Shown here piece by piece: positions 45,169 to 59,317 of a stretch of DNA of 64,000 bases (positions are counted from its first letter, which is position 1; each line of letters opens with the position of its first letter). The DNA lies in IMG/VR virus record IMGVR_UViG_3300031957_001675, positions 1,576 to 65,575 of that record; one strand, 5' to 3'. The notes under the pieces were generated by a model. The model made no database searches, was not told the origin of the DNA, and worked only from the letters and a program-made list of their open reading frames with translations. Made by a program: the position numbers and the translations under genes. Origin of the DNA: a virus. Taxonomy: Duplodnaviria; Caudoviricetes.

Positions 45169-46081
45169 TTAATTTTAACCTCATTAAATCTGAGAACTTA
45201 GTTTGTTTTGTCTTACTTATTAAATATAACAAACTTTTAAAACCAGTCTCACTTGGGTCTTTTTCTTCAAATTTCATCATTTTGACTTTTATACCATTAT
45301 TAATGAAATGTTCTGAAATCTTTGTAGCTTCTATCATTGCATCATTGTCTAAAGCTAAGTATATAGTTTTTACTCTTGATTCAATTATTTTTTTCTGTAG
45401 AGTTTTCATAACTGTTTTACCGAATAAAGGGATTGCATTTCTTTTAAATGCCATAGCATCAAACACACCCTCACATAATATAAGTGGTTCATCCCAATTA
45501 ATAAATAAATCAAATCCAATAATATCTTTAGAAGTAGGTGAATTACGATATTTCATCTTACTACTATAAAAGTCTCTACCTACAAAAAAATTTAACGTAC
45601 CATCTAAATCATATGATGGAATGATAATACGATTAGAATATAAACCCGAATCACAATAACCAATGTTATATTTTAAAATATCTTCATCTGTTATGTTTCT
45701 TTTATATAGATAACTTAATGCATGTCTTTTAACAATACTATCATTACCATTCCATAGTGGTTTAAACTCTTTTGGTAATTCTACTACTTCAGTTTTTTTT
45801 CTATCTTCTTTTTTATATTTATATGAATCACCGACTAATTCATTAAGTTCTTCAAAATGTTGATGTGAAGCATTGACTTTTTTAAATAACTGAAACAATG
45901 TACGACCACCTGTATTAGATACCCAACAATGCCAATTTTGATTCTTAATATTAATCTGTAACTTTTGTTTATGATGAGATACGAAAGGACTCCAATACAT
46001 AAACTCATTTTCTTTTTTTAACTTAGTTCCATTACTACTAAGAACTCTGTTAATAAGATTTACAATTTTATTTTGATTCAT
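45134..46081 (-). CDS. DNA primase (TOPRIM)
   Basis: YLYKRNI, RIIIP, F.GR, KY.NS, CEGVFDA and LALDNDA motifs; degenerate N-terminal zinc finger. Confidence 0.88.
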   Translation of the reverse strand: MNQNKIVNLINRVLSSNGTKLKKENEFMYWSPFVSHHKQKLQINIKNQNWHCWVSNTGGRTLFQLFKKVNASHQHFEELNELVGDSYKYKKEDRKKTEVVELPKEFKPLWNGNDSIVKRHALSYLYKRNITDEDILKYNIGYCDSGLYSNRIIIPSYDLDGTLNFFVGRDFYSSKMKYRNSPTSKDIIGFDLFINWDEPLILCEGVFDAMAFKRNAIPLFGKTVMKTLQKKIIESRVKTIYLALDNDAMIEATKISEHFINNGIKVKMMKFEEKDPSETGFKSLLYLISKTKQTKFSDLMRLKLNGKTKKHMEIL

Positions 46082-46409
46082 TTAATAATTCTAATAACTT
46101 GTCAAATTCTAAAACAGCATATGTTTTAGTTCTGTTTCTTTTAAATATCAACAATGGTGTGTGAACACCACTATTATTTTCTGCTTGTTCTAATGAAGAC
46201 CAGATATTTAGTTTTTCTTGATTTTTACATTCTACTGAGAAAGGAAATAGTTTTCTTGCAGCTGGTGATAAAAGAATATCTTCTCCACTATCACCCATAG
46301 TAATAGAACGAACATCATCTTGTTCTAATGTTTCAAATTTCTCGAGGATTAAATCTCTAACGTCATTCTGTAACCGTTTACCTTTATTCTTTGCCGAACG
46401 AGGTTTCAT
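46068..46409 (-). CDS. PD-(D/E)xK nuclease, Holliday junction resolvase-like
   Basis: K.KG.RLQ...GEDI...SVECKNQE...QA...P.LIFKRNR motifs. Confidence 0.75.
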   Translation of the reverse strand: MKPRSAKNKGKRLQNDVRDLILEKFETLEQDDVRSITMGDSGEDILLSPAARKLFPFSVECKNQEKLNIWSSLEQAENNSGVHTPLLIFKRNRTKTYAVLEFDKLLELLNESK

Positions 46410-46489
46410 CTATATATTCTTCTCTTTTACTTTTATAAAATAGTCTATTATAATTATAATTGTAAAACATCAAATTACATTTTATTTTT

Positions 46490-47689
46490 CTACTTTTCAT
46501 AGTCGAGTGAAAAATCTTTATAACCATACTTATCCCAACTAGCTACTTCGTCTTCAAAACCTTCATATTTATCACTTGTATTTATAATTTTTTTAATTAC
46601 TTGTACTATAGGTGTCTTTTCATCTTTATCGTCATAAATGTTATCAGCTTGTGGAAAATCTTCTTGTGTATAACCACCTTTTTCAAACCAAGGTTCTGGT
46701 TTATTATCACTAATACCTAAAATTCTAGGTAATCCTGTAGATAGAAATCCTGTATCTGGTTCACCACCATCTGCTGAATAACTATTATTATTAGAACTAC
46801 TTTCCGTAACCACCTCTATTATTTTATTTTTCCATTTACGATATTCTCTCTTACCCCACTTTTCAGCTATCTCTTCAAACTTATTATCATCGTGAAAGTC
46901 ACCACCTTTTTGTACAGCTAGTTCACCTGCTACAGTATAAAACTTCTCATATTTTTTAGCACCCATTTTCTTTCTATCTAATGCGTGTTTAATTTCGTGT
47001 AAAACTGTTATTAAAAATTCTTTGACACTCGAATAACTTTTTCTTAAATTTATAGTGTCGGTTATCCAATCATAATCTGCCATATTATTACCACTTGTAA
47101 ATCTTACTTTTGATTTTAATCGATATTTTTTTACCAATTTTTCAGCTGTATCTAAAAAGTCAATTCTTTCCAATAACAGATAACCTGTTGTGTTTTCTAT
47201 TGATTTTTTTAATGATTTCTTTTTTGCTTCCCATTCCTCTGGTTTAATAAAACCTGTGGCACCTTTTAGACCTTTTATATTCGCAGTTCGTGATGCCTCA
47301 TCTATATTGTTTATTACTTTAATAACTCTTTTATCAAATGGTTTTGGTAATTCATCTATAGGAAAATAACCCCAATCAGTATGTTCGTGATTTATACGGG
47401 GTACAAATTGTTTATCACCTTTACACATAAAAACGTGAAATTGACCACCTTTGTTTTTAGGTGATTTATGTGAAAATTTAATTGGTTTATTAAGTATGAT
47501 TTGAGTCTCTTCAGAAAACTCTCTGTAAGCACCTTCTTCAGGTGTTTCATCGATATGAATATGACCTTTAGGTATACCCCACAAACCTTCAGTGCTTAAA
47601 CAACAAAGCAAAGTATTATTATAAAAGTAAGCTATACCAGCTGCGTCTTTTGAATCTTTACTTTCTATTATTTGTTTTAATTTAATCAT
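46490..47689 (-). CDS. Polyprotein: Nudix hydrolase plus HEXXH metallopeptidase-like domain (MIKLKQIIE leader)
   Basis: Nudix box GHIHIDETPEEGAYREFSEET; VLHEIKHALD...E..AE zincin motif; junctions NIDE, LLLE and VVTE. Confidence 0.75.
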   Translation of the reverse strand: MIKLKQIIESKDSKDAAGIAYFYNNTLLCCLSTEGLWGIPKGHIHIDETPEEGAYREFSEETQIILNKPIKFSHKSPKNKGGQFHVFMCKGDKQFVPRINHEHTDWGYFPIDELPKPFDKRVIKVINNIDEASRTANIKGLKGATGFIKPEEWEAKKKSLKKSIENTTGYLLLERIDFLDTAEKLVKKYRLKSKVRFTSGNNMADYDWITDTINLRKSYSSVKEFLITVLHEIKHALDRKKMGAKKYEKFYTVAGELAVQKGGDFHDDNKFEEIAEKWGKREYRKWKNKIIEVVTESSSNNNSYSADGGEPDTGFLSTGLPRILGISDNKPEPWFEKGGYTQEDFPQADNIYDDKDEKTPIVQVIKKIINTSDKYEGFEDEVASWDKYGYKDFSLDYEK

Positions 47690-47891
47690 TACATATCTCA
47701 CAAGAACAATTTTTTAATTCTTCAGGTAATTCTGTTCTTGTTATTTCATTCCCGTCTTTGTCTTTTATAGTTAAATCAGAAGGTTTTTTTACCATAATAT
47801 CTTCTACAGCTAAGTCATCAATATGACAGCCACAATGATTACATACTTTAGAAATTTGTTGACCACTTGATGTAAACTTTACTCGTATCAT
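47682..47891 (-). CDS. Small Cys-rich protein (CNHCGC...CSCEIC)
   Basis: 69-aa ORF with paired cysteine motifs. Confidence 0.55.
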   Translation of the reverse strand: MIRVKFTSSGQQISKVCNHCGCHIDDLAVEDIMVKKPSDLTIKDKDGNEITRTELPEELKNCSCEICND

Positions 47892-48040
47892 CTTCTACCA
47901 TATACTGGAAATTGAGGTCCTTTTTCTGCTTGTTTAGCTAACCACTTTTTGTGTTGTTTAGCTGTTCTACCTTCAGTAGCCCATTTTTCGTTTAATGCCG
48001 CTTTTTTCTTTTTTCTATTTTTAGCTTCTTTACTTGGCAT
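47888..48040 (-). CDS. Small basic protein (50 aa; not in the ORF track)
   Basis: MPSKEAKNRKKKKAALNEKWATEGRTAKQHKKW...; GGAGG upstream and ATGA overlap downstream. Confidence 0.6.
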   Translation of the reverse strand: MPSKEAKNRKKKKAALNEKWATEGRTAKQHKKWLAKQAEKGPQFPVYGRR

Positions 48041-48263
48041 CTTTTCCTCCCATAACTTTTTCAACACCAGCTATTCCAAAACAACCAAGTGTTATATATA
48101 AAAAACTATTATAAACAAAATCATTTATAGGTAAATCTAAACCCATATAACCAGTAACTAAATCTACTGCACTATACATACCCATAATTGTAAATGATAA
48201 AAATCCTATAATTGTTTTTTCATTAAACTCATTTTCATCTTTAAAAATATCTTTGAAAGCCAT
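48030..48263 (-). CDS. Two-transmembrane small protein, holin-like
   Basis: Two hydrophobic segments, charged termini, 77 aa. Confidence 0.5.
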   Translation of the reverse strand: MAFKDIFKDENEFNEKTIIGFLSFTIMGMYSAVDLVTGYMGLDLPINDFVYNSFLYITLGCFGIAGVEKVMGGKDAK

Positions 48264-48264
48264 T

Positions 48265-48987
48265 CTATTTCCAATCCCAAAGTTTTATGAGATTATAAGT
48301 AATACCTATACCCCATATTGGTTCTGTTAAACCTGTTATTTGATTATATGTTACACCTAACATAGGTCCTATTGAAATTTGATTTCTTGGTGGTTTGATT
48401 TTAATCACCTCACTTTTACCACCTTTTATTTTCAAATTCAAAAATTCATTATCTGGGTAAATAGCTTGAAATTCATATCTATCTAATTTCTCTATCGAAG
48501 GAGGTCCTAAATTAAGTTCTCCTTCAAAGTCGGCTATTGTTTCAGATTGTACGACTTTATTGTCTTTTATACGAAGACCAGTTCTACCAAAGACTTTTAT
48601 ATAACTATCTTGAGTCCCAAATTCTTTTAAAAAAGGAACTGTAGAAGCTTCAACACTTAATAACTCTAATCGCATTAACTCTAACGTGTCTTGAAGATTC
48701 TGTATTTTTTGTTCGTATTCTTTACTCCAACGAACTATGTCATATAAATCTTTAGATAATGTTTTAAATTTTTTATCTTGAGTATCATTATCTTTTTGTA
48801 ATTTTTTTGTTATAGTTGATAAACTATCTATAGAACTTTCATTTGTGACTATTAATTGTTCTTGTCTATCACTATCACTTTTAAGAAAATCAACTTCTTG
48901 TTTAGCATAAAAGTAACGAACACCTATTATTGTTAAAACTGTAATTATGTTTATTAAGTTTATACCTATTACGTAACTTTTTTTCAT
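48265..48987 (-). CDS. Membrane-anchored coiled-coil protein, spanin-like
   Basis: N-terminal TM helix, coiled coil and C-terminal amphipathic beta hairpin (GIGITYNL); adjacent to the holin-like gene. Confidence 0.45.
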   Translation of the reverse strand: MKKSYVIGINLINIITVLTIIGVRYFYAKQEVDFLKSDSDRQEQLIVTNESSIDSLSTITKKLQKDNDTQDKKFKTLSKDLYDIVRWSKEYEQKIQNLQDTLELMRLELLSVEASTVPFLKEFGTQDSYIKVFGRTGLRIKDNKVVQSETIADFEGELNLGPPSIEKLDRYEFQAIYPDNEFLNLKIKGGKSEVIKIKPPRNQISIGPMLGVTYNQITGLTEPIWGIGITYNLIKLWDWK

Positions 48988-49124
48988 TTTGATAACTCCT
49001 TACTTGCATAATCTTTTAAGACATCAGGTAACCAAGCGTGAATAAAAAGAGCTCCACTCAATTTCATTGCTCTCAACCAATGTGACCAATACCCAATGTT
49101 ATTTTCTTTTAAATGTTTTATCAT
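48984..49124 (-). CDS. Small protein, DUF6356-like (46 aa; not in the ORF track)
   Basis: MIKHLKENNIGYWSHWLRAMKLSGALFIHAWLPDVLKDYAS; ATGA overlaps at both ends. Confidence 0.6.
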   Translation of the reverse strand: MIKHLKENNIGYWSHWLRAMKLSGALFIHAWLPDVLKDYASKELSK

Positions 49125-49726
49125 TTTAAATCTTTTGTTGCTATATCAATTGCTTTTCTTACAGCTCCTCCTAGTTCACTTTGATTAAAAGGTAAACTCT
49201 CTTCTATTTGTAAAGCTGTTGCTGTAATGTTTGTCTGTATTGTACCTGTACCTCGTCCTGTCATCACTCTACCTGTAGCTACTTCTTGGACCATCACGTT
49301 CATACGAACTTCTGTTTCTGTTTTTCTACGATTAAATATACCTATAATACTAAAAGCCTCATCAGGTCTACCGACATAAACGATTTCTGCTGTCACAACA
49401 AAATTAGCATTGTCATCAGCTACTAGGTTATATTTACTTTCAGAAAATGTTTCTTCTAACAACTGACGAACTCCCATTGTTACTCTGTCGTCTTGTATAC
49501 CAACTCTATCTGCTACTCTTACAAACTCACTAATCTTTAGTGTTGGTACAATCAAGTCCTCACCTAATATAGCTGGTTGTGGTAGTGCAGATTCTTTTTG
49601 TTCTTGTAATTTTTTTTCACGTTCTTTATCACGTTCTAATCTTGAACGCATTATCTCACCTTGACCTGATGCTATTTCCATCATAGCGAATCCTAGTAGT
49701 AAGAAAATTAAGAATCTACGTTTCAT
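49121..49726 (-). CDS. Secreted CsgG/TolB-N-like protein
   Basis: Signal peptide, then V..LLEE.......Y.LV...A.FVVTAEI...EVRMNV...EVATGRV..G.G.G...AVRKAI alpha/beta pattern. Confidence 0.55.
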   Translation of the reverse strand: MKRRFLIFLLLGFAMMEIASGQGEIMRSRLERDKEREKKLQEQKESALPQPAILGEDLIVPTLKISEFVRVADRVGIQDDRVTMGVRQLLEETFSESKYNLVADDNANFVVTAEIVYVGRPDEAFSIIGIFNRRKTETEVRMNVMVQEVATGRVMTGRGTGTIQTNITATALQIEESLPFNQSELGGAVRKAIDIATKDLK

Positions 49727-49735
49727 TTTTGTCTC

Positions 49736-50719
49736 CTAAAAATAAGTCCCAAATAATACTGAAAATGTTTTGTTTCTATCCCCATAATCATTTACAACTG
49801 TATTGTACCCCATTGATATACCCACATTAAATGTAAATGCTGTACCTACTCTCCAATCAAATGAAATAGTAGGGAAGAAGATTATAGGACTTCTCAAGAA
49901 TAAATATCGACCACCTTCAATATTTCCTTCATAATATCGCAGTAGAGTATATGCTATATAACTTGAAAATGTTACCTCACCAAAATTAAATTTGGCAGGA
50001 TATCTAATAGCGTACATTCCTGTTACATTTCCAAATCCAACACCACTTACTCTACCATAACTCATTGTCAATACTGCAGCTTCAGGGTTACTTTTAACAA
50101 GTGATTTAGCTGCTGAAGCACTTAACAACCAATCCCAACCTTCAAACGTTTTATAAGTCAATCCACTTGATGATAATTGTAAACTTTGTTTTTTAGCTTT
50201 AAATCTGAATCCTCGTCCATACGTCAAAGATGTTTTTCTGAAATCATTTGTAAAGTTAAAGTTACCATCGTGTCTACTACTACCATCAAATGATGTAGCG
50301 GTATAAACACTATTAAACTGAGTTATCCATCTATCTTCTCCTTGTGTAGAACGAATAGCATAGTTAACCTGAGTTGGGTCATTACTAATATCACTTTTAC
50401 TAAATTGTTCAGTAACGTTATCAGCAATGACTGAAGATAATATTTCTTCAGCTACTTTAACGGCACACGGAAAAAGTCTTTCAAAATCATTATAAACTTT
50501 TTCAGTCCAAGATTCTAACTGACCTTCTAATACTTCTTGTAATGTAAAAAACTTAGTACGATTGTAATAAGTAACTTGAAATCCTTGTTGACCATCACCA
50601 CCTATAACGGTGTTTGTTCTAATAACGGTTTGTTCACAAGGGTCTACATAACTATAAAAGAATGATTGGGCAGAGATACTACTCAATAAAAATAAAAAAC
50701 TAAATAACCTCTGCCTCAT
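49736..50719 (-). CDS. Putative outer-membrane beta-barrel protein
   Basis: Signal peptide, alternating aromatic beta strands, C-terminal FSVLFGTYF resembling a BAM beta-signal. Confidence 0.65.
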   Translation of the reverse strand: MRQRLFSFLFLLSSISAQSFFYSYVDPCEQTVIRTNTVIGGDGQQGFQVTYYNRTKFFTLQEVLEGQLESWTEKVYNDFERLFPCAVKVAEEILSSVIADNVTEQFSKSDISNDPTQVNYAIRSTQGEDRWITQFNSVYTATSFDGSSRHDGNFNFTNDFRKTSLTYGRGFRFKAKKQSLQLSSSGLTYKTFEGWDWLLSASAAKSLVKSNPEAAVLTMSYGRVSGVGFGNVTGMYAIRYPAKFNFGEVTFSSYIAYTLLRYYEGNIEGGRYLFLRSPIIFFPTISFDWRVGTAFTFNVGISMGYNTVVNDYGDRNKTFSVLFGTYF

Positions 50720-50724
50720 TCATA

Positions 50725-51360
50725 TTACCAACCTCGTTTGTCAATAGCTTTTATAACATTGACTACGGCTGTCTCCATAGCTTTATTTGATGCAGAACTA
50801 AGTGAACTTTGATTCCAATCCATATTTGGATTCATTAAAAATCCTTTACCTATGGTTGAAGCAGTTCCTCTTCCACTACCTACAACATATTGTGTGTTTT
50901 CATTGTTGATGAGTTTTACTTGTATACCAACAAATGTTTCGTTGATTGTTTCAACTTTACCAGCTTTGATTTCTTCTTTTAGATTTACACCAAAGTCATA
51001 AATACTTACACTAGCAGAATACTTTGCTTTTGTAATCTTGGCTTTGTTAGCTTTTAAATCATTCATAATTAAAAGTTGCATATCTCTTTCAGCTTCAACT
51101 AAATTAAATCTACCAACATAAGAGATTACATTTTGAAGTTCTTGAACAAGACCCATAGAAACTCTCTTCTCAGCTAGTTCAGGGTATCTTTCTTCTAACT
51201 CTTTATTAAACTTCAAATCATAAAGTTTCAATCCATCAACTTTTGTTACTTCAATCTCATCTAATGATTTTTGTTTTTCATATTCACCAACGTATTGTTC
51301 TGTTGATACTGATGCAGCACAACCAAAGAATACTAATAGTAAAGGTAATATTTTAATCAT
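50725..51360 (-). CDS. CsgG/HfaB-like lipoprotein
   Basis: Lipobox FFGC; GRFNLVE...SIYDFG...VGIQVKLIN......V.SGRG...A..KAMETAV pattern. Confidence 0.65.
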   Translation of the reverse strand: MIKILPLLLVFFGCAASVSTEQYVGEYEKQKSLDEIEVTKVDGLKLYDLKFNKELEERYPELAEKRVSMGLVQELQNVISYVGRFNLVEAERDMQLLIMNDLKANKAKITKAKYSASVSIYDFGVNLKEEIKAGKVETINETFVGIQVKLINNENTQYVVGSGRGTASTIGKGFLMNPNMDWNQSSLSSASNKAMETAVVNVIKAIDKRGW

Positions 51361-51728
51361 TTGTCTCTCCATATAATTGGTTTTTTACCACCATCTTTTT
51401 TCTTATCTTTCCAAGAATCTTCACCGACTTTATATCCGATGTAATATGAAACACCTGCAACAACTAATGTATGAATCATACGACGTGTTCTCATCTTCTG
51501 ACGAGCTTGTCTTACCACTATTTGTTTATTTCGAACACCTTGTTTCTGATTCATTTTCATATGTGCCCTTTTATGAGCCGCTTCATACTTTTTAAAATCC
51601 CAATCTTGAATTGTTTTTACTACTTTCTCACCTGTAGTTTCTTTAACATCTTGTGCTACTAATTGTGTACCTACAGATAACGCTATTATTATAGCAAATA
51701 GTATCCAAAACTTTTTATTATTTTTCAT
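51357..51728 (-). CDS. Secreted/membrane hypothetical protein
   Basis: Signal peptide similar to that of the PorV-like gene, plus a C-terminal hydrophobic segment. Confidence 0.55.
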   Translation of the reverse strand: MKNNKKFWILFAIIIALSVGTQLVAQDVKETTGEKVVKTIQDWDFKKYEAAHKRAHMKMNQKQGVRNKQIVVRQARQKMRTRRMIHTLVVAGVSYYIGYKVGEDSWKDKKKDGGKKPIIWRDK

Positions 51729-52063
51729 TATTCTCTCCTCGTGGTTCTTCTACCACCTCTACTTTTACCACCTTTGTGACCACCTTTGTTATTACCTCTA
51801 CGATATTCACCACTTCTTTTTTTCTTTGGTTTGATGTAAACATATTTAGGTGTGTCTACATAATAATTTACACCATAGTAATAATCCCTATAGTTTTTGT
51901 TCCAATATAGGTCTGAGTATGAGTTTCTAAAATGTACATCATAATATACGTTGTAGTACGCTTGAGAAACTCTTGTACTATCGTTTGGTATGACAGGTTC
52001 TCTGTCGAAACTACCAATCGAAATGCCGATAATTAAACCGGTTATGAGTTCTAATATTCCCAT
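51728..52063 (-). CDS. Hypothetical membrane-anchored Tyr-rich protein with basic tail
   Basis: Hydrophobic N-terminus, Tyr-rich middle, R/K/G-rich end. Confidence 0.5.
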   Translation of the reverse strand: MGILELITGLIIGISIGSFDREPVIPNDSTRVSQAYYNVYYDVHFRNSYSDLYWNKNYRDYYYGVNYYVDTPKYVYIKPKKKRSGEYRRGNNKGGHKGGKSRGGRRTTRRE

Positions 52064-52070
52064 ATATCTC

Positions 52071-52460
52071 CTATCTAAAATCTGATAAAGGGTCTTTAAG
52101 TAGTTCTTCTAGCTTCTTGATTTCTCTTTTTAGATTTTTGATTTCATTGTTTAAGTTAGCTACATCTTTATCATAAGATTTAACTTTAGGTGTTTTTAAG
52201 TTATCAAGTTTATCACGAAGATATTTAATATCCTCATCATACCCATCTAACTTAGATGTTACTAATTCAATATCACTTGCTTCCGCGAAACCCTCTACAA
52301 CTTCTTCTAATCCATCAATACGACCAGTAAACGAATACCAACCAGCAATACCAGTTGATAATACAGTTACAAGTGCTATGATATTTTGGATTGATAATCC
52401 AAACTTTTTATTTTTTATTTCTTCTACTGCTGCTTCAGCATCGACTATATTTTTTGCCAT
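52071..52460 (-). CDS. Single-TM coiled-coil protein
   Basis: IIALVTVLSTGIAGWY helix followed by heptads; AAGGAG RBS. Confidence 0.6.
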   Translation of the reverse strand: MAKNIVDAEAAVEEIKNKKFGLSIQNIIALVTVLSTGIAGWYSFTGRIDGLEEVVEGFAEASDIELVTSKLDGYDEDIKYLRDKLDNLKTPKVKSYDKDVANLNNEIKNLKREIKKLEELLKDPLSDFR

Positions 52461-52471
52461 AACTTATCTCC

Positions 52472-52516
52472 TTAATTACAACAACCGCATTCGCAGTTAT
52501 CTTGATAATTTTTCAT
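52472..52516 (-). CDS. Possible 14-aa Cys-rich micropeptide MKNYQDNCECGCCN
   Basis: ATG 1 nt after the upstream stop; its TAA overlaps the RBS of the next gene. Confidence 0.4.
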   Translation of the reverse strand: MKNYQDNCECGCCN

Positions 52517-52517
52517 A

Positions 52518-53405
52518 TTAAAACTCCAAGTTTATTGTTAATCTAATTGTGTTACTTAATGGTAACGTCTTGTCTCCATAAATATAACTCATACCAATAA
52601 GATACTTATCATATTTAAAATCTAATCCAAATGTAGGGTAGGTTAATTTGTGCATATTATCTATGTAATATCCAGTTTTTCCCCATAACATATTTTTATA
52701 ATTGTAACCTGTTCCTATACCAAATGTTTGATGTTTTTTCATTCTATTAAATTGACCATAAAACATCCATTCTTTATATGGGTATGTTCCAGCTACATTT
52801 ACACTTGTAGGTAGTTCTGATTTGTATTCACCAAACTTAGGTGCAAATCCAAAGTTACGAACCATGACATCTAAATCTAAATCTTTATATACTTTAGGAA
52901 AATACCATCCTAATCCGAGTATTAATCCTGTGGCTTTTTCTGAGAATAAATCGTGATGTACTATCTTACTTTCAATACCCCAATAATAATCTTTTATCAA
53001 ACCTCCAAAAGCTGTTCCTGGAGCTTTACCTCCCCAATTGAATCCCCATACAGAACTCAAAGGAGTAAATTGTCCTAAAATTATTCCGTATTCATCAGCT
53101 TGATTCTGTTCTCCATAATTAAAAAACAAAACATCAATTCCATATTGTTGACGTTCAACTCTTATATAGTTGTAGTTCATATCATTAACAATACTCGTCA
53201 TCCAATTCACTCTACTAAAACTGAAATGGTCTTTATCAAAAAGATTACGAGCTGGATTCATCATTGGTAACATTACATTACCAATAGAACTTACTTGAGC
53301 AGTTGGTGCTAACGTAAGTATTCTATTTGCTTGTGCTAATAGTTGACTACTTAACGATAATAATATCGCTAAACTGAATAATATCCAAAATTTATTTTTT
53401 TTCAC
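52518..53405 (-). CDS. PorV-like (FadL/UPF0164-type) outer-membrane beta-barrel
   Basis: Signal peptide; L..APTA...S.G...NPA...S..NW....D..YNY...FNYG.....DEYG...G.F pattern; C-terminal LTINLEF. Probable start is GTG 53405. Confidence 0.75.
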   Translation of the reverse strand: MKKNKFWILFSLAILLSLSSQLLAQANRILTLAPTAQVSSIGNVMLPMMNPARNLFDKDHFSFSRVNWMTSIVNDMNYNYIRVERQQYGIDVLFFNYGEQNQADEYGIILGQFTPLSSVWGFNWGGKAPGTAFGGLIKDYYWGIESKIVHHDLFSEKATGLILGLGWYFPKVYKDLDLDVMVRNFGFAPKFGEYKSELPTSVNVAGTYPYKEWMFYGQFNRMKKHQTFGIGTGYNYKNMLWGKTGYYIDNMHKLTYPTFGLDFKYDKYLIGMSYIYGDKTLPLSNTIRLTINLEF

Positions 53406-53508
53406 GTTTTTCTTCCATTTTTTCTGAAAACCAAACAATAAGTTTCATCGTATAATATAATGCTGGTAACATCAGTGCTACTGCTAAAAAGAATTGTCCT
53501 TCATTCAT
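53392..53508 (-). CDS. Small single-TM protein (38 aa; not in the ORF track)
   Basis: MNEGQFFLAVALMLPALYYTMKLIVWFSEKMEEKREKK; TAATG overlap with the upstream gene. Confidence 0.55.
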   Translation of the reverse strand: MNEGQFFLAVALMLPALYYTMKLIVWFSEKMEEKREKK

Positions 53509-56339
53509 TATTTCACCACCGTAAATTTATTTGCTTTTATTTTATTGTTTGTTTGCATTACAAATATATAAACACCTGGTTCAAGTTTTTGATGATTTTC
53601 ATATACGCTCATCTCTGGTATCCAAACACTTGGTTCGTTTGTAAAATCAAAAGTATGTAATCCAGCCATTACGTGTTCATTTAGTAATGTCCCTACCTTC
53701 TGTCCTATTGAATTTAAGATATATAATTTTACATCTTTTGATTGGGGTAGATAGAATTGGAATGTAGTATTTTCTTTGAATGGATTCGGATAGTTGTAAG
53801 TAATACCATCACCATCTGGTTCTGAACCTCCGAATGCCCAATACTTATTCCATACTAATACTTGTCCGTCATTTCGTTTCATCAATAAGTCTCTACCCGC
53901 TGGTGTACCTGCTGAATACTTACCAGTAAATCTTATTGGAGCTGTTGTCCACTCTCTATCAGGAAAATCAGCTTCGAATAATAAATTCAACCCTGTAATC
54001 TCTTTGTCAATCCAATACGTTTCAGGTTTATTACTAGGTGAATAATCAACACCTCCAAATGATACTTTTCTCCAACCATCTACTGCTTCGTGAACATTTA
54101 CATACGTCATCCAAGGGCCTGGTAGAACGTCAGTTTTCATATCTATAAATTTTAACTCGTCTTCTTTATACTCAACTTCAAATTCAAATCCTGCTAACAA
54201 AACTTCGTCTATTGGTGTGATAGTCAAAGGAACTTCTATTTGATTACCAGATTGAACTCGTACGGTTGAATCAGCAGGTAACGATAAAGTTACGTCAGGA
54301 TTTATTGATTGATTGTTCGTAATTACTTTGTTTACATAATTAGAAGGAGCACTACCACCTTTCCATCTATGAAACATTATATTGGAGGCTATATCATTTT
54401 GATAACCATCTCCTCCACTCTCTGATACTTTCGTACCCGTATTGTTTATGTCACCTGTAAAGTAATATCCAATGTCTGGTATCAAGTAATCTGGGTTACC
54501 TACTTGACCAGTTCTTTCATATAATCTATCTTTATGCCACGAAGAATATCCACCACCTAATATTAAGTGAAGTGTATCTAGTCCTGTTTGATGGTCATCC
54601 ATCAGAGGGTTGATAGTTTCTATCTGACCAAATGTTAAAGCCTTTTGATTTGTGGCTAAAGCTCTTGTTGTTGTGGTTGGAGATTTAAAACCATTATTAT
54701 CACCCGAACTTCTATCACCAGCTGTACCTGATTCTGCTGTTGTGGTCTCATCCCAATATACCGTGAACTCATATTTTTGTGGTCGTGATTGTCCGTTCAC
54801 CGTTTGATAATAAGTGTAATCATTAGCATTACCACTTTCTTTAAAAACCTCGATAGTCGCCCAATCTTCGTAAGAATTTCCATTATGATGAGTATAGTTG
54901 TTTAAGATACCTGAAACATAAGCCCATAAAATATAAGTGTCGTTTAACTGATACACATCGTCACCATCAACATCACCAACTAAATATTCGATAGCTGTTA
55001 AAGTATCTATTCGACCACCACCACTATTGTAGTTATGATGTTTACCTGATTGGAAATTGAATGAAGCTATAGCATCATTAGCATTTGTAATAGCCGTTCT
55101 GTCTAACTCAAGTTGTGTATGTGCTTCAATATTATCACTTGCATCGGGTGGCCAAAATGATATACGATATCTATTGTTTCTTGGTAACTGAATATTATAA
55201 TATCCTTTATCATCGGTATAAGTAGAATCATAATAACTTATACCAAGAAATCCCTCTTTGGGTAATGCTTGTAAAGCAGTTGTTGATTTGTTATCATAAT
55301 AAAATGTTGCTGTGTGGTCTCCGATAATATCATCAGAATTATCCTCATCAACTAAATTAGCTTCGTTTGTAGTAGTCTCAAAGTTTAACCAGTTAGTTAT
55401 TCTTGGACTGAAGTTAGCTTCATTGTGGTCTAACTCAAATTTTACTTTCCAATATGGATATGTATTCTCCGCTGGTGCACTCCAAGCCGCTCCAAGAGCT
55501 CTATCTTTACCTTGAGCATATCTGAAGTATCCTTCAACATCTAGTAGTTTTGGGTGTAGTGTTATATCACCTCTAGCTCCACCTATACCAACTTGTTCTG
55601 TACCAGTGTTACCATCAATGTAAACTTTGTAATTAGAACCATAAAGACCGTTTGTAACGTATGTGTAATACCCTATACTACCATCATATTTTGTAGCAAC
55701 TCTAAAAGCTTTCGGAGCAAAGTTATCAGCTACATCATTGACCTTAAAATGTAATTTCAATAACTCTGTTTGTGTACCGTTACCATTACCAAAAGTTTTC
55801 ACATTACCATTGTGAGATACCATTGTTATTCTCAACCAATCATATCTTGTATCAGTAACGGATAGTTCATCATCTGCGTCAGCTAATGAATCGGTATATC
55901 CCACATTCTCATATCTGACGACTTCGTATGAATAATGTGCTCCGGCTGAACTATCACCTTCTGTCCAACCTGAAATGTAAGCTCCTTTTTCAACGTGAGT
56001 TGAGTCGTGTCCCCAAGTAAATAAATCATTGTCGAAAGCTAAATCTAAACGAAAGGCAGTAACACTAGCTCCGTTATCATCAAGAGTAACAGCTAAAGTC
56101 ATTACTGAATCTCTCCAGGCATCGAAGTTATTGTTCTTATATGCAACACCTACTGCGGCATTAGATGTGTTCATACCGGTAGTGTCATCTGCCAAGTAAC
56201 CTCTTAGTTTAAAGGTTTCTGAGTCTCTCCACCAAAACTTAGGTGTTTTATATTCTCTTGATTGCATAAGTCTAATTATTGGTGTTTGAGTATAAGAAAA
56301 ACTCATCAACAATATTAAACTTAATAAAAATTTACGCAA
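53508..56339 (-). CDS. Secreted protein with cohesin-like and dockerin-like domains and a C-terminal T9SS type A sorting domain
   Basis: Signal peptide; AFRLDLAFDN and EVPLTI...AGFEFEVEY cohesin-like patterns; GDVDGDDVYQLND Ca-loop; NYPNPF...V.LYI.NSIGQ.V...L.PGVYI......KFTVVK CTD. Confidence 0.8.
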   Translation of the reverse strand: MRKFLLSLILLMSFSYTQTPIIRLMQSREYKTPKFWWRDSETFKLRGYLADDTTGMNTSNAAVGVAYKNNNFDAWRDSVMTLAVTLDDNGASVTAFRLDLAFDNDLFTWGHDSTHVEKGAYISGWTEGDSSAGAHYSYEVVRYENVGYTDSLADADDELSVTDTRYDWLRITMVSHNGNVKTFGNGNGTQTELLKLHFKVNDVADNFAPKAFRVATKYDGSIGYYTYVTNGLYGSNYKVYIDGNTGTEQVGIGGARGDITLHPKLLDVEGYFRYAQGKDRALGAAWSAPAENTYPYWKVKFELDHNEANFSPRITNWLNFETTTNEANLVDEDNSDDIIGDHTATFYYDNKSTTALQALPKEGFLGISYYDSTYTDDKGYYNIQLPRNNRYRISFWPPDASDNIEAHTQLELDRTAITNANDAIASFNFQSGKHHNYNSGGGRIDTLTAIEYLVGDVDGDDVYQLNDTYILWAYVSGILNNYTHHNGNSYEDWATIEVFKESGNANDYTYYQTVNGQSRPQKYEFTVYWDETTTAESGTAGDRSSGDNNGFKSPTTTTRALATNQKALTFGQIETINPLMDDHQTGLDTLHLILGGGYSSWHKDRLYERTGQVGNPDYLIPDIGYYFTGDINNTGTKVSESGGDGYQNDIASNIMFHRWKGGSAPSNYVNKVITNNQSINPDVTLSLPADSTVRVQSGNQIEVPLTITPIDEVLLAGFEFEVEYKEDELKFIDMKTDVLPGPWMTYVNVHEAVDGWRKVSFGGVDYSPSNKPETYWIDKEITGLNLLFEADFPDREWTTAPIRFTGKYSAGTPAGRDLLMKRNDGQVLVWNKYWAFGGSEPDGDGITYNYPNPFKENTTFQFYLPQSKDVKLYILNSIGQKVGTLLNEHVMAGLHTFDFTNEPSVWIPEMSVYENHQKLEPGVYIFVMQTNNKIKANKFTVVK

Positions 56340-56396
56340 TGTAAATCTCCTCGTTTAGTTATATAGGTTAAAAGTCGATTAGACTTCTACCTATAC

Positions 56397-56404
56397 ATAA
56401 ATAT
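56397..56404 (-). promoter_or_regulatory. Putative late promoter motif ATATTTAT with adjacent hairpin (56362-56395)
   Basis: Upstream of the envelope cassette; TATAGGT/ACCTATA and AAGTC/GACTT stems. Confidence 0.55.
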
Positions 56405-56427
56405 AATATATATTGCGAAATAGTGGG

Positions 56428-57519
56428 TTAGTTTGTGTCGAATCTCACAACAAATGCAAGTGACATTTCTTTGTCGTTTTTAACTGGTTTTGCTAATTTA
56501 CCTAGAGCTAGTAGTTCGTTTTGGTCATTATATAAACCAATATTTGTGACATATGTGGCAAAGTTTGAATGAGAGGCCTCACCTATAAGTTGTGTACCAA
56601 TTTCATATCCAGAAGTACTCCAAGAACTTGTTGAATAACCAACAACATTATAATTGAAGGTATCATATATACTATGACCTTCTAATGAATGCTGAAAACC
56701 TTCTATCGCTACACTACTACTGAAACCTTGTTTTATACTTTTGTTATTAGTGTGTTGAAAATCATTTTCATCTACTCTACATACATACTCTCGTTCATAT
56801 ATAGTTTGAGTTGAATCAAATTCTATAGTGAATCCATCAGAACCATTACCAGTACTTATATCTTTGTATGACCCTGTGTTTGTTACTACAGCTAGACCAT
56901 CATTATAAAAAAAGTTACCTACTACACTACCACTACCCTGAGCTGTAACTGCTTTGTTTGCGTAGCTTGAAGAAAAGTCTGTATCGTATAAATTACCTCT
57001 ACCGTCATCTTTTAATATAATAGTTGAGTCGGTACTATTGTCTGTAATAGTGACAGAACCCGGTCTTACTCTTTCACCGTATAGTTTTTGTGATATTGAA
57101 ATAACGTTAGCTGTATCGTGTAGTTGTCTTGTATATGGTCTACGTAAACTATATGTTCTTCTTCTTGTAGAGTTATCTAAAGTGGATAATGGTTCAGTAT
57201 ATGTATATGATAAAACTGCATCTGAAGCTGAAGGTACACCTCGAATATAATCGATACTACCTCTCATTTGTGTTATATCTCTATAATATAATTTATAAAT
57301 AGTTTGATATGTTGGTACACTATAAAACACACTAGAAGAAATTGTTTTAGTAGTTGCTGAACTAATATCAAAGTCGTGAAGATTTGAATCAGTAGGCTTA
57401 ACTAAATTTATAGCATAAACACCACTACCACTATCAGCCTCTGTTAAAGCAAATGTTTTATGTGTTTCAAATGAGGATATTAAAATATCTTCTGGTTCAA
57501 GATTTTTCTTGAATGACAT
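56428..57519 (-). CDS. Baseplate/tail structural protein
   Basis: C-terminal YVTNIGLYNDQNELLALGKLAKPVK motif, reminiscent of tail-collar domains; paralog of the adjacent gene. Confidence 0.65.
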   Translation of the reverse strand: MSFKKNLEPEDILISSFETHKTFALTEADSGSGVYAINLVKPTDSNLHDFDISSATTKTISSSVFYSVPTYQTIYKLYYRDITQMRGSIDYIRGVPSASDAVLSYTYTEPLSTLDNSTRRRTYSLRRPYTRQLHDTANVISISQKLYGERVRPGSVTITDNSTDSTIILKDDGRGNLYDTDFSSSYANKAVTAQGSGSVVGNFFYNDGLAVVTNTGSYKDISTGNGSDGFTIEFDSTQTIYEREYVCRVDENDFQHTNNKSIKQGFSSSVAIEGFQHSLEGHSIYDTFNYNVVGYSTSSWSTSGYEIGTQLIGEASHSNFATYVTNIGLYNDQNELLALGKLAKPVKNDKEMSLAFVVRFDTN

Positions 57520-57531
57520 TTTTTACCCCTT

Positions 57532-58557
57532 TTAGAAATCAAGTTTAACTTTTATAAGAGCTTCTCTTGATTTTGATTTGATGATTGGTTTACTTAATTT
57601 TGCTATAGCTAACAATTCATTATCAGCATTATACATACCGACAGTTGTTATGAATGTCTTAGGGTCTTTTTGTAATCCAGGTACAACTCTTTTTACACCT
57701 GATACCGACTCTGTATAAAAAGTTTCATTTGTTGTACTATTAAACTCTTTTGCTGTAGCTCTTACGAAGAAATGTCTTGATGTTATTTCTTCTTGTCTTT
57801 TTGCTGAGAAGTATGCACCTTCTTTAACAGCATTTGAAAAAAGTCTAGCATTTCTATCATCACTATTAGAACCACTTTTTGTAATTAAATTCAATGGTGC
57901 ATTTTGTAATCTTATTGGATTAAATATCATACTACCTAAGCTTGGATAAAATAAACCATATGAACCAATTGTTGTACCTTCACCAGCAGCTGTTGTGTTG
58001 ATTGTAGTGCCACCTACGAGAGTACCACTAACAATGTTATACTCTGGTGAGAAATTTCTTTGGTCTGTATTACCACCTTTATTAGTGCTTGAATCATCAA
58101 TCAACTTAACTGTATGATTACCGTCATTAATATGTAGTTCCCAACCACCTGGTTCTAATGATTCTCTAATTCTTGCTCTATTGAATGTTAATGCATAAAA
58201 TTGTTTTACATCATCTAACCCACTAAATTTAAATCTTTGTGTTTGAGGTGGGTTAATCATATTGTTGAACTGACCGAATACGGCTGCAGTTGTTCTATCA
58301 CCTGCTGTACCAGGTAAACCAAGAGATGCACTACCCTCTGCGTGACCATAAGCAACACCAAATTGAACAGATGCTGATGAGTTAGTTGCTGGGTCATATC
58401 TGTATAAATCTACATTGTAGTCACCAGTATTTGTGTATTGTGTAGATGATGTATGAAACGTAGTTATACTTGATGCTCCGTCTTGGAAAACACCCGAAGT
58501 AACTATAGCTACATCAGATACTTTATCATCTTCTGTTAATGGTTTAAACATTGACAT
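57532..58557 (-). CDS. Baseplate/tail structural protein
   Basis: C-terminal FITTVGMYNADNELLAIAKLSKPIIK motif. Confidence 0.65.
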   Translation of the reverse strand: MSMFKPLTEDDKVSDVAIVTSGVFQDGASSITTFHTSSTQYTNTGDYNVDLYRYDPATNSSASVQFGVAYGHAEGSASLGLPGTAGDRTTAAVFGQFNNMINPPQTQRFKFSGLDDVKQFYALTFNRARIRESLEPGGWELHINDGNHTVKLIDDSSTNKGGNTDQRNFSPEYNIVSGTLVGGTTINTTAAGEGTTIGSYGLFYPSLGSMIFNPIRLQNAPLNLITKSGSNSDDRNARLFSNAVKEGAYFSAKRQEEITSRHFFVRATAKEFNSTTNETFYTESVSGVKRVVPGLQKDPKTFITTVGMYNADNELLAIAKLSKPIIKSKSREALIKVKLDF

Positions 58558-58581
58558 ATTTTTATTCCTTATAATTTAAAA

Positions 58582-59238: not shown

Positions 59239-59281
59239 TGTTTATCTCCAAGATTTAAAATTTGATATAACTTTACTGTTA

Positions 59282-59289: not shown

Positions 59290-59317
59290 ATATGTTCTAA
59301 GTTTTTTAACAATTTAA

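Follow-up and report, generated by a model that had tools for sequence, protein, structure and literature searches.

A phage-borne gene cassette of a T4-like marine phage, predicted to exploit the host T9SS for surface display

Introduction

Why would a tailed phage devote a block of its genome to proteins that are exported by Sec or anchored in membranes, and what would such proteins do during infection? This question is raised by the window analysed here, a 64-kb stretch of a 65,575-base virus record (CheckV completeness 40). The record displays the traits of a T4-like phage, including a Gp23-type capsid, a T4-type portal, a prohead protease, TerL and a GH108 endolysin, and the host group of this abundant marine phage is Flavobacteria-type bacteria. 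An earlier reading made by inspection of the sequence (hereafter the sequence-only reading) had described an envelope cassette, and we found every gene that it named at its place on the minus strand, in all 10 ORFs encoding proteins of 77-943 aa.

Results

Layout, conservation and upstream motif of the cassette

The cassette (48030-56404, minus strand) consists of tightly packed genes with gaps of 0-133 nt whose products are Sec-exported or membrane-anchored. It carries a conserved promoter-like motif at its upstream end and is immediately preceded by S1421-S218-S341-S363, a gene set that is conserved in this phage clade. Its features, in reading direction, are as follows.

56397-56410, minus strand: promoter-like motif TATATTATATTTAT (core at 56397-56404, ATATTTAT), some 58 nt ahead of the gene for the 943-aa protein
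53508-56339, minus strand: CTD943, a secreted protein of 943 aa in which a signal peptide is combined with cohesin-like modules, a dockerin-like motif (DVDGDD) and a T9SS CTD of type A
53511-53822, minus strand: type A T9SS C-terminal sorting domain, residues 840-943 of CTD943 (TIGR04183)
52518-53438, minus strand: PorV306, a 306-aa outer-membrane barrel of the PorV/PorQ family (NF033709)
52071-52460, minus strand: cc129, a 129-aa bitopic inner-membrane protein with a hydrophobic segment at 20-38 and a periplasmic coiled coil (hydropathy)
51728-52063, minus strand: s111, 111 aa, with an N-terminal hydrophobic segment (hydropathy) and a Tyr/Arg-rich tail; variable accessory gene of some loci only
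51357-51728, minus strand: s123, a small basic protein of 123 aa, secreted or anchored; variable accessory gene of some loci only
50725-51372, minus strand: Lp215, a 215-aa outer-membrane lipoprotein and distant CsgG-superfamily member (transitive Pfam CsgG link)
49736-50719, minus strand: bb327, a 327-aa outer-membrane protein with an N-terminal domain, a 12-stranded barrel and a terminal Phe (AF2)
49121-49726, minus strand: sp201, a 201-aa secreted, non-lipoprotein paralogue of Lp215 (hhalign)
48265-48987, minus strand: cc240, a 240-aa bitopic inner-membrane protein with a hydrophobic segment at 5-23 and a variable coiled coil (hydropathy, alignment)
48030-48263, minus strand: tm77, a small membrane protein of 77 aa, holin-like by size alone; accessory gene found in 7 of the 31 related loci that are complete

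Of 40 related viral loci, 31 have the seven core genes in an unchanged order, with phage genes on either side of the cassette, and nine are truncated by contig ends. A more distant clade keeps the order in five of seven loci, with two cut. The core genes are under purifying selection (dN/dS 0.02-0.29) and base composition is uniform along the block. The cassette is thus co-conserved in related phages, and it is phage-borne rather than a host insert, which is what the sequence-only reading had assumed and what the flanking phage genes and independent sequencing runs (see below) bear out.

The same reading had placed a putative late promoter at 56397-56404. The motif at this site is conserved, since related loci keep it at the equivalent position upstream of the 943-aa gene, but its core differs in the gene-strand reading from the T4 sequence TATAAATA. 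The 14-mer has a single exact match in the whole window, and the core occurs 22 times versus 12.8 expected, a count reached by 2 of 100 shuffles; 14 of the 22 matches fall on the minus strand, of which, by our own reading, 10 occupy gaps immediately ahead of a gene. Structural and lysis genes, endolysin included, are preceded by the same promoter-like motif, so that the motif points to late expression of the cassette as well.

A secreted scaffold with a T9SS tag

As a whole, CTD943 matches TIGR04183 weakly (21.6 bits, cut-off 23), but its last 104 residues alone reach 31.4 bits (E 1.3e-7, profile positions 2-71 of 72) and carry an insertion of some 20 residues that the profile lacks. The CTDs of relatives match in 19 of 19 cases, which confirms the type A tag noticed earlier on this protein. 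Cohesin (PF00963) is matched by 24 of 25 family members (best 6e-8), the DVDGDD dockerin-like motif is our own reading of the sequence, and the gene has a dN/dS of 0.07-0.18.

Four core proteins and accessory protein s123 have Sec signal peptides whose cleavage would leave Gln at the N-terminus. A small residue followed by Q is present in 26 of 28 distinct sequences of CTD943, 26 of 26 of PorV306, 28 of 28 of bb327, 26 of 26 of sp201 and 10 of 10 of s123; Q18, right after the signal peptide, is invariant in the CTD943 family alignment, as is Q22 just past that of sp201. The core set additionally comprises one lipoprotein and two proteins held in the inner membrane. This N-terminal Gln "Q-rule" is described as specific to Bacteroidetes (PMC5837995). 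No SprA or PorKLMN genes were found within the 64-kb window.

A PorV/PorQ-family barrel and its fit with the tag

Relatives of PorV306 begin with MKK, and its true start is probably a GTG 11 codons downstream of the annotated one, near 53405. The protein matches NF033709 over profile positions 23-326 of 326 (E 2.7e-21, 76.5 bits, cut-off 90), and its family profile matches the PDB PorV chain 6h3i_F (E 2.3e-9). Among 26 family members, 25 match NF033709, all 26 match PorQ and 23 match PorV, with no match of PorV306 to the PorP/SprF families at E<=0.1. We rejected an assignment as a PorV orthologue, as PorV306 scores far under the PorV cut-off (43.8 versus 250) and its family matches PorQ equally or better, and likewise one as a PorQ orthologue (45.2 bits versus a cut-off of 220). 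Thus, the PorV-like barrel of the sequence-only reading holds as a member of the PorV/PorQ family and not as PorV itself, and with scores under both cut-offs it may act PorQ-like or otherwise.

A complex model of PorV306 (36-306) with the CTD (840-943) gave an ipSAE of 0.88 (median of 3 runs), the best of 3 controls giving 0.01; the runs share at least 97% of contacts and partner pLDDT is at least 75. Among solved complexes 116 of 157 reach the ipSAE mark, as do 2 of 215 mismatched pairs; these counts serve only as a rough benchmark here because our own alignments were used. Conserved CTD motifs face the barrel. The modelled interface holds 14 of the 33 family-invariant residues of PorV306 within 47 of 271 residues (expected 5.7, p 2.5e-4) and 19 of the 36 of the CTD within 33 of 104 residues (expected 11.4, p 1e-3), an enrichment that is not fully independent as the model saw the alignments. 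A T9SS carrier-substrate complex has already been solved (PMC10994853), so that the result may reflect memory and demonstrates likeness only. With that reservation, the model supports binding of the CTD tag to the phage barrel, a pairing that had been proposed from the sequence.

An outer-membrane trio

Lp215 is the best-conserved gene of the cassette (dN/dS 0.02-0.09), with a lipobox Cys18 that is invariant in 13 of 13 sequences. Profile searches with Lp215 and sp201 of the window returned no direct CsgG match. ESM Atlas ties Lp215 to CsgG at 0.95, and Pfam CsgG is matched at E<=0.01 by 38 of 79 remote relatives of full length, with 23 above the gathering score; the two CsgG-like proteins of the earlier description are therefore distant CsgG-superfamily members, placed there only via intermediate relatives. 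The domain of Lp215 comprises 190 folded residues, and its sole model is poor (pLDDT 42), too low to judge transmembrane hairpins or a ring. Alignment of sp201 with Lp215 by hhalign gave a probability of 92% (E 5.2e-7, 157 columns).

The AF2 model of bb327 (pLDDT 55, pTM 0.52) has 12 strands spanning 119-326, preceded by an N-terminal domain with two invariant Cys, C28 and C85. Foldseek returned the EspP barrel (E 7e-4), and the best 50 matches in VIA are all outer-membrane barrels, topped by NalP (Z 15.3, rmsd 3.7, 202 aligned) and including PelB of PelBC (Z 13.2, rmsd 4.0, 203 aligned), so the beta-barrel suspected earlier is indeed one of the outer membrane. PelC, the partner of PelB, is a ring lipoprotein.

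Coiled-coil anchors and a small membrane protein

The layout of cc129 is an N-terminal hydrophobic segment followed by two helical stretches divided at a Pro, with a mean column identity of 74% (15 relatives) and a conserved end, LLKDPL(S/A)DF(R/K). Searches against Pfam/NCBIfam gave coiled-coil noise only, and no lipoprotein ORF is embedded within the gene. In related loci cc129 mostly lies immediately upstream of the sole lipoprotein gene, whereas two additional genes intervene between it and Lp215 in the window. The C-terminal domain of cc240 is conserved and beta-rich, ending ..K(L/I)WDW(K/R), and the protein weakly matches Rz-like LysB (E 4e-4); tm77 has no family match in profile searches. 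The spanin- and holin-like character ascribed to these genes fits their topology (N-terminal hydrophobic segment plus coiled coil), and nothing beyond topology supports it. The GH108 endolysin gene (32373-32924) has no holin or spanin candidate in its neighbourhood.

A reduced cassette in a cultured phage

The cultured relative vB_FspM_immuto (NC_055915), which infects Flavobacterium and has a 52% identical capsid protein, carries a reduced version of the cassette. Adjacent genes encode, in the same order, a cohesin+CTD protein, a small membrane protein and homologues of Lp215 (gp017, E 1e-33), bb327 and sp201 (E 1e-14). The gp017 protein has no lipobox Cys, and the block has replication genes around it and is some 77 kb away from the S341 homologue. 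No cc240 homologue and no PorV-family gene were found in immuto; the latter empty search result is weak evidence, but suggests that a PorV306-type barrel is not essential to the module.

Discussion

We give slightly better than an even chance to the prediction that the cassette is a phage-encoded, late-expressed surface-display module that exploits the host T9SS, and it probably re-dresses the surface of the infected cell. CTD943 would cross the inner membrane via Sec and then be exported by the host translocon, after which PorV306, replacing or acting alongside host PorV, would take it up and so retain the cohesin/dockerin-like scaffold at the outer membrane. Lp215, its soluble paralogue sp201 and bb327, the trio shared with immuto, may constitute a second outer-membrane assembly that cc129 and cc240 would link to the inner membrane. 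If true, the infected cell would likely receive a new protein coat late in infection. Its purpose can only be guessed, and we would rank masking of receptors on cells and debris first, followed by sticking of infected cells to neighbours or particles, and then polysaccharide binding. The roles suggested by the sequence-only reading, such as exclusion, aggregation and lysis, are likewise guesses. Host PorV is reported to recognize all type A CTDs already (PMC12618676), and why a phage copy should be needed counts against surface display. Further points against it are the scores of PorV306 under its family and orthologue cut-offs, the failure to find a PorV-family gene in immuto, and the chance that the complex model merely echoes solved PorV-substrate complexes. 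Additionally, two coiled-coil anchors and a holin-sized protein in or beside the block would also fit a role in lysis.

A device for outer-membrane lysis or egress is an unlikely explanation that nevertheless deserves weight. The cc129 and/or cc240 proteins would be spanin-like inner-membrane stalks with Lp215 and the barrels as outer-membrane partners, breaching the Bacteroidota outer membrane once endolysin has cut the wall, and the CTD protein would be an accessory. Two-component spanins (Rz/Rz1, T4 PseT.3/PseT.2) place a bitopic coiled-coil gene just before that of an outer-membrane lipoprotein under late control, and cc129 has the i-spanin layout and usually this position. Furthermore, the conserved beta-hairpin-like end of the weakly Rz-like cc240 could reach the outer membrane, the cassette shares its late-type motif with the endolysin gene, and that gene is without an adjoining holin or spanin candidate. 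However, Lp215 is large and folded rather than a short o-spanin, its immuto homologue is not lipidated, the family matches amount to coiled-coil noise, immuto has no detected cc240 homologue, cc129 contains no embedded lipoprotein ORF, and in the window it is separated from Lp215. Nor does lysis offer an obvious use for a carrier barrel or for a 943-aa cohesin protein that bears a secretion tag.

It is rather improbable that Lp215 and sp201 form a CsgG-like ring that, together with bb327, exports or anchors a phage protein in a curli-like manner independently of the host T9SS, possibly for cell aggregation ("sibling capture"). The CsgG-superfamily link suggests such a ring, immuto shares the trio and not the PorV-like gene, and the modelled bb327 is similar to barrels, such as PelB, from exporters that act together with lipoprotein rings. 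Pelagimyophage CsgG/CsgF operons moreover are reported at the same genomic position, between replication and structural modules (PMC7029224). On the other side, the window proteins lack a direct CsgG match, neither sp201 nor immuto gp017 is a lipoprotein, genes resembling CsgF, CsgA or CsgB were not seen, and the Lp215 model is too poor to argue for a ring. The bona fide T9SS tag on the cargo favours the host pathway.

There is very little likelihood that the products are virion fibres or decorations, an idea suggested by the position of the block directly after conserved phage core genes that have the same upstream motif, and by the occurrence of Ig-like CTD folds on virions. Virions of tailed phages assemble in the cytoplasm, whereas these proteins include five with cleavable, Q-rule Sec signals, a lipoprotein and two outer-membrane barrels, and the immuto block is remote from the S341 homologue. 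Finally, an assembly chimera of a host fragment and a phage contig, suggested by near-identical cassettes in two bacterial MAGs ("Pelagibacter" TMED203 and Flavobacteriales NAT55), is refuted by synteny in related loci, by 17 independent runs that contain at least 0.87 of the stretch's words and by contigs that bridge 55440-57873 and 46113-48810 (run X13) and 55545-56463 (run X8), with even composition and the shortness of the MAG contigs (11.3 and 9.2 kb), which have phage flanks around the cassette, also against it.

Comparison with known systems

Our literature search found no published description of this cassette, so that the earlier suggestion of an undescribed system holds for the papers covered. 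However, T9SS cargo encoded by a phage (PMC7468147) and CsgG/CsgF operons of phages (PMC7029224) have already been published. The cultured relative immuto has gp013-gp019 annotated as lectin, cohesin and hypothetical proteins, and differs in having its scaffold split into lectin, cohesin/dockerin-like and cohesin+CTD proteins.

Among cellular systems, PorV with type A CTD cargo in Flavobacterium johnsoniae and Porphyromonas gingivalis (PMC10994853, PMC12618676) shares with the cassette the Sec signal, the C-terminal type A domain and a PorV/PorQ-family barrel. Here, in contrast, the genes are virus-encoded, cargo and carrier are adjacent, the window lacks the other T9SS components, and PorV306 is about 100 residues shorter than the 402-residue F. 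johnsoniae PorV (6h3i_F). Type B CTD cargo genes of F. johnsoniae adjoin those for cognate PorP/SprF shuttles, which are described as deciding the destination of the cargo (PMC12618676), and thus offer a cellular precedent for a cargo gene beside its own shuttle gene, although the cassette combines a type A tag with a PorV/PorQ-like barrel.

Among phages, the "curli operon" of T4-like pelagimyophages is reported to contain CsgG, CsgF and unknowns, with aggregation proposed as its role (PMC7029224). It resembles the cassette as an accessory block between structural and replication modules of a T4-like marine phage that encodes a CsgG-type outer-membrane protein. However, those phages of SAR11 hosts have close CsgG and CsgF homologues, while the cassette, from phages of Bacteroidota, has two very distant CsgG-superfamily paralogues without CsgF and adds two barrels and a T9SS cargo. 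"Cryophage" genes likewise end in type A sorting domains, presumably to hijack the host T9SS, and their cargo consists of enzymes (an endoglucanase, a GH39 protein and a PA14 protein) without a secretion-system part (PMC7468147). The cargo of the present cassette is instead a cohesin scaffold that comes with a carrier barrel of its own and with the outer-membrane trio.

Genomic setting of the cassette

The parent virus record comprises 65,575 bases, 64,000 of which form the window, and is estimated by CheckV to be about 40% complete. The window belongs to a distant T4-like phage. Every long ORF lies on the minus strand, and a tRNA search of the window found none. The annotated genes, together with the cassette genes that are referred to by position, are as follows.

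Features of the window (coordinates, strand, description)
12286-13932, minus, Gp23-type major capsid protein
19145-19762, minus, prohead protease
21351-23186, minus, T4-type portal
23197-24780, minus, large terminase
32373-32924, minus, GH108 endolysin
35846-41551, minus, tail fibre with S74 chaperone
41792-47701, minus, SbcCD-like nuclease, primase, PDDEXK nuclease and NUDIX hydrolase
48030-48263, minus, 77-aa protein of the cassette (tm77)
52518-53438, minus, 306-aa carrier barrel of the cassette (PorV306)
53508-56339, minus, 943-aa cargo protein of the cassette (CTD943)

The cassette (48030-56404) is located between the replication genes and four conserved genes without a known family (56428-63583), with 48030-56339 filled by ten co-oriented ORFs separated by gaps of 0-133 nt. 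The largest gap (48988-49120) separates the gene for sp201, a 201-aa secreted protein, from that for the coiled-coil protein cc240. An extra ORF of approximately 312-314 aa is present there in loci L009, L010, L012 and L013, and the two genes overlap in other relatives. On the far side of the cassette, the region 56428-58557 encodes paralogous proteins of 363 and 341 aa that have no family match and share the C-terminal motif ..LLA.(G/A)KL(A/S)KP.. Since homologues of the 341-aa protein occur in the cultured Flavobacterium phage vB_FspM_immuto (immuto), Microcystis phage Mel-JY01 and Rhodothermus phage RM378, both probably belong to the core virion proteins of the clade. Elsewhere in the window, a 1642-aa protein (25687-30615) carries an N-terminal AAA_33/zeta-toxin-like kinase domain.

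Conservation and evolution of the cassette

The cassette is genuine: a conserved envelope module carried by phages. Its seven core genes occur in one order (cargo, carrier barrel, the coiled-coil protein cc129, lipoprotein, barrel, lipoprotein paralogue, cc240) in 31 of 40 related viral loci, with the other nine truncated where a contig or locus stops but containing all genes up to that point, so the unit proposed from the sequence alone does recur in related phages. The same order is present in five of seven loci scanned from a more distant clade, the other two being cut. Loci L049 and L050 are contigs filed in MAGs of 'Candidatus Pelagibacter sp. TMED203' (11.3 kb) and 'Flavobacteriales bacterium NAT55' (9.2 kb), respectively; as these are short contigs carrying the same phage cassette, they are mis-binned fragments of phages of this group. 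An assembly chimera was rejected on the basis of this synteny, of the presence of the stretch in 17 seawater runs from at least 10 studies (each containing at least 0.87 of its words), and of contigs from independent seawater runs that bridge both cassette borders. The phage group carrying the cassette is widespread, and the cassette proteins have hundreds of relatives. Searches of GenBank phages by megablast with the cassette, and by tblastn with PorV306 and CTD943, returned no match.

Every cassette gene has a dN/dS of 0.02-0.29 relative to three relatives. Pairwise distances, which are descriptive and uncorrected for relatedness, correlate more strongly among cassette genes (r of 0.41-0.89) than between cassette and flanking core genes (r of 0.44-0.66), versus 0.90 between the two flanking genes. 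Additionally, in comparison with the closest relative (L013), the PorV306 gene has a dS of 1.13 and 69% protein identity, versus a dS of 0.33-0.70 and 84-96% identity for neighboring genes. The carrier gene thus seems to have been exchanged or to be diverging separately from its neighbors, and this high dS along with the distance correlations points to a partly separate, mosaic history for the cassette.

A promoter-like motif upstream of the cargo gene

The sequence-only reading placed a putative late promoter at 56397-56404. A conserved promoter-like motif is indeed present upstream of the CTD943 gene, which on the gene strand reads ATATTTAT within TATATTATATTTAT, but it does not follow the T4 late consensus. 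That consensus, TATAAATA, differs in sequence, has no match at this site and is not enriched in the window (17 matches versus 12.4 expected). In contrast, the 8-mer core of the motif occurs 22 times versus 12.8 expected, a count reached in 2 of 100 shuffles. Fourteen of the 22 occurrences are on the coding strand, and by our reading ten of these 14 immediately precede genes, in short intergenic gaps; the endolysin, the tail fibre and the terminase operon are among them. Related phages keep the motif at an equal distance upstream of the first gene. Given this conserved position, the excess in the window and the placement upstream of genes, we accept the motif as a candidate promoter-like element shared by these genes, which suggests that the cassette is co-expressed with late genes.

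A small inverted repeat (AAGTC ... GACTT, 56372-56386) lies between the motif and the CTD943 start, and relatives have a different inverted repeat in the same place; it could form a 5' leader hairpin. Among the listed runs that contain the stretch, none is an RNA run; contigs from runs X18 and X19, which may or may not be RNA, are 90-95% alike and are uninformative as to transcription.

The cargo protein carries a T9SS sorting domain

CTD943 has an N-terminal signal peptide, whose predicted cleavage site bears an invariant Gln, and it contains cohesin modules. Pfam cohesin PF00963 is matched by 24 of 25 family members (best E 6e-8), the single match of the whole-protein profile to the PDB is a cohesin (E 0.052), and a DVDGDD motif looks dockerin-like to us. 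The claim that this protein has a type A T9SS C-terminal domain (CTD) was borne out with the domain alone. TIGR04183 gives a weak 21.6 bits against the whole protein (cut-off 23), where the match ends at residue 941 of 943, and 31.4 bits (E 1.3e-7, profile positions 2-71 of 72) against the last 104 residues. All 19 relatives tested also match TIGR04183 (best E 3.2e-9). Pfam PF18962 scores 21.3 bits against the whole protein (cut-off 27). The CTD has an insertion of approximately 20 residues, and its profile gave no significant match to PDB sequences. Tested as an isolated domain, the C-terminus is thereby assigned by profile to the type A T9SS sorting domains.

The carrier barrel and its predicted complex with the cargo

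PorV306 matches NF033709, the PorV/PorQ family model, over essentially its full length (E 2.7e-21, profile positions 23-326 of 326). Of its own family, 25 of 26 members also match this model (best E 5e-31), and the family profile matches Flavobacterium johnsoniae PorV in the PDB (E 2.3e-9). Its 76.5 bits are under the NCBI naming cut-off of 90. The orthologue models are matched by 23 of 26 (PorV, best E 1.9e-17) and 26 of 26 (PorQ, best E 1.9e-20) family members; however, PorV306 itself scores only 43.8 bits against the PorV model NF033710 (cut-off 250) and 45.2 bits against the PorQ model NF033711 (cut-off 220), and assignment as an orthologue of either was rejected. The barrel is also approximately 100 residues shorter than PorV. 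Thus, the description "PorV-like" is accurate at the level of the family but not of the orthologue, and PorV306 represents a third kind of PorV/PorQ-family barrel.

The pairing of cargo and barrel was modelled with PorV306 residues 36-306 and CTD943 residues 840-943 in three runs, which gave a median ipSAE of 0.88 versus 0.01 for the best control, at least 97% contact agreement and a partner pLDDT of at least 75. Among solved complexes, 116 of 157 attain this ipSAE mark, as do 2 of 215 mismatched pairs, counts that are only rough since our own alignments were used. PMC10994853 describes a solved T9SS carrier-substrate complex, so the pass may reflect that known structure; the model shows a likeness to it and supports binding of this pair as a candidate interaction. 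The predicted interface contains 14 of 33 family-invariant residues of PorV306 within 47 of its 271 modelled residues (p 2.5e-4) and 19 of 36 from the CTD within 33 of 104 (p 1e-3), an enrichment that is not independent of the model because the model saw the alignments.

The CsgG-like pair and the second barrel

The 215-aa lipoprotein Lp215 has an invariant lipobox Cys (Cys18, 13 of 13 sequences), which is lacking in sp201 and in gp017, the Lp215 homologue of immuto. Neither Lp215 nor sp201 matches Pfam or NCBIfam at E<=0.01-0.1, and together with the 327-aa barrel bb327 they have no direct match in Pfam, PHROGs, NCBIfam, PADLOC or PDB sequences. A first, shallow hhalign comparison of Lp215 with sp201 found no relation, while deeper alignments gave a probability of 92% (E 5.2e-7, 157 columns), by which the two are paralogues. 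Their joint profile retrieved 220 proteins at E<=1e-3 from 1.84 billion representatives, and the 79 listed matches of at least 184 residues were scanned with Pfam. CsgG (PF03783) is matched at E<=0.01 by 38 of these 79, with 23 passing the gathering score of 20.8 bits (best 63.7), and five also match LpoB. ESM Atlas links Lp215 to CsgG (0.95) and returned only sub-threshold leads for sp201. Based on ESM Atlas and these intermediate relatives, Lp215 and sp201 are distant members of the CsgG superfamily; the CsgG-like label given by the sequence-only reading holds in this distant sense, but not as a direct PF03783 match.

The single AF2 model of Lp215 is poor (pLDDT 42). VIA matched it to eight LptE entries (Z 5.9-7.6) and to CsgG 6lqh (Z 7.2, rmsd 2.5, 83 aligned), scores that are in a range the tool calls common and that were left unused. 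An LptE reading of Lp215 was rejected, as none of the 79 listed relatives matches LptE. Three remote relatives (P0287, P0302 and P0342) have the CsgG-like domain fused to a caspase (Peptidase_C14) domain.

The proposed beta-barrel is supported by modelling. In bb327, a signal peptide ending A|Q precedes an N-terminal domain that contains two invariant cysteines, and the last residue is Phe; the AF2 model (pLDDT 55, pTM 0.52) has 12 strands after two helices. With E near 1e-3, Foldseek retrieved the barrels of autotransporters, FapF, TamA and NanC, and the best 50 VIA rows are all outer-membrane barrels (Z 10.3-15.3), led by NalP (Z 15.3, rmsd 3.7, 202 aligned), CymA (Z 14.4) and PelB of PelBC (Z 13.2). 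The model is that of an outer-membrane beta-barrel, with no specific barrel family assigned. In a Fibrobacterota MAG (L131, 3308-5148), the gene just before that of a CsgG-family lipoprotein (P0319) encodes a 396-aa protein whose signal peptide ends A|Q and which has an early Cys, a linker of low complexity, and a barrel-like end with a final Phe. This layout is like that of bb327 and its immuto homologue gp018, with no sequence homology to bb327 detected.

Host signals and the cultured phage immuto

Gln follows the signal peptide in 26 of 28 distinct sequences of CTD943, all 26 of PorV306, all 28 of bb327, all 26 of sp201 and all 10 of the accessory 123-aa protein s123. This rule is described in PMC5837995 as specific to Bacteroidetes rather than to the whole FCB group, and Q-rule proteins are encoded by P. 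gingivalis phages (PMC10367356).

The nearest cultured phage is immuto, with 52% capsid protein identity. It has side-by-side genes for a C-type lectin that bears a signal peptide, for a cohesin/dockerin-like protein and another cohesin protein that carries a T9SS CTD, for a small membrane protein, and for homologues of Lp215 (E 1e-33), bb327 and sp201 (E 1e-14). Profiles of the PorV family and of cc240 gave no match in the immuto genome, an empty answer that the tool treats as uninformative. From these comparisons, the CTD-bearing cohesin protein and the trio of Lp215, bb327 and sp201 would be an old core, with the carrier barrel and the coiled-coil "stalks" as putative additions of the marine phage group.

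A model for the cassette and its alternatives

The sequence-only parts list is right once the corrections noted earlier are applied. We propose that late in infection the cassette proteins would enter the envelope by Sec, that CTD943 would be exported by the host T9SS and then held by the phage's own carrier PorV306, and that the trio would build a further outer-membrane assembly, which the stalks cc129 and cc240 would connect to the inner membrane. As a consequence, the infected cell would gain a cohesin-bearing coat. We give this scheme as a whole a slightly better than even chance of being correct.

The main alternative is an outer-membrane lysis device. Each stalk combines a single N-terminal hydrophobic segment with coiled coils, with cc240 ending in a conserved beta-rich domain and weakly matching LysB (E 4e-4). 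The topology of cc129 is compatible with a two-component i-spanin; no embedded lipoprotein ORF was found within its gene, and Lp215 is the sole lipoprotein of the cassette. The stalks and Lp215 would fit a lysis role, as would the endolysin region, in which no spanin candidate was found. No membrane protein was found next to the GH108 endolysin, and the two ORFs downstream of it (31556-32373) have no hydrophobic segments, which leaves no holin or spanin candidate at this site. The membrane-embedded tm77 is holin-sized and occurs in only 7 of 31 complete related loci. However, the cargo and its carrier do not fit a lysis device, and the Lp215 homologue of immuto is non-lipidated; overall we consider lysis unlikely. 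An autonomous CsgG-type exporter, as PMC7029224 proposes for pelagimyophage curli operons, is in our estimation very doubtful. A reading of the cassette proteins as virion parts was rejected.

A bolder form of the cohesin-coat scheme is a self-contained, virus-built trans-envelope machine that includes the first virus-encoded T9SS component and plants a cohesin scaffold on the dying cell. Such a machine would consist of a pair of stalks in the inner membrane, a ring of CsgG-superfamily proteins together with the 12-stranded barrel, and a carrier barrel specific to the phage, and its scaffold could capture nearby hosts or particles, or protect progeny against debris. We regard this as rather improbable, although if true it would mean that abundant marine phages actively reshape the particle adhesion of infected Flavobacteria.

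Significance and comparison with known systems

In the sea, Flavobacteria are among the main degraders of carbon from algae and particles, and it is the T9SS that puts their surface proteins in place. If these phages feed their own tagged scaffold and carrier barrel into this system, then infection alters the cell surface in a programmed manner, with possible effects on superinfection, aggregation and attachment to particles. To students of secretion, the cassette offers a natural, compact type A cargo-carrier pair, and the need for a second carrier calls for an explanation. In the cultured phage immuto (host Flavobacterium sp. LMO8), the trio occurs along with a CTD-tagged cohesin protein, which makes function directly testable.

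In the non-subscription literature searched, neither a phage PorV-family gene nor this cassette turned up in any paper. Individual parts do have precedents. A phage-encoded T9SS cargo has been reported once, in PMC7468147, as a "unique occurrence", and the pelagimyophages of PMC7029224 carry CsgG/CsgF. In cells, according to PMC12618676, type B cargo is paired with adjacent PorP/SprF shuttles, type A tags reportedly being recognised by PorV. Among known systems, we class the cassette with phage accessory envelope and secretion operons.
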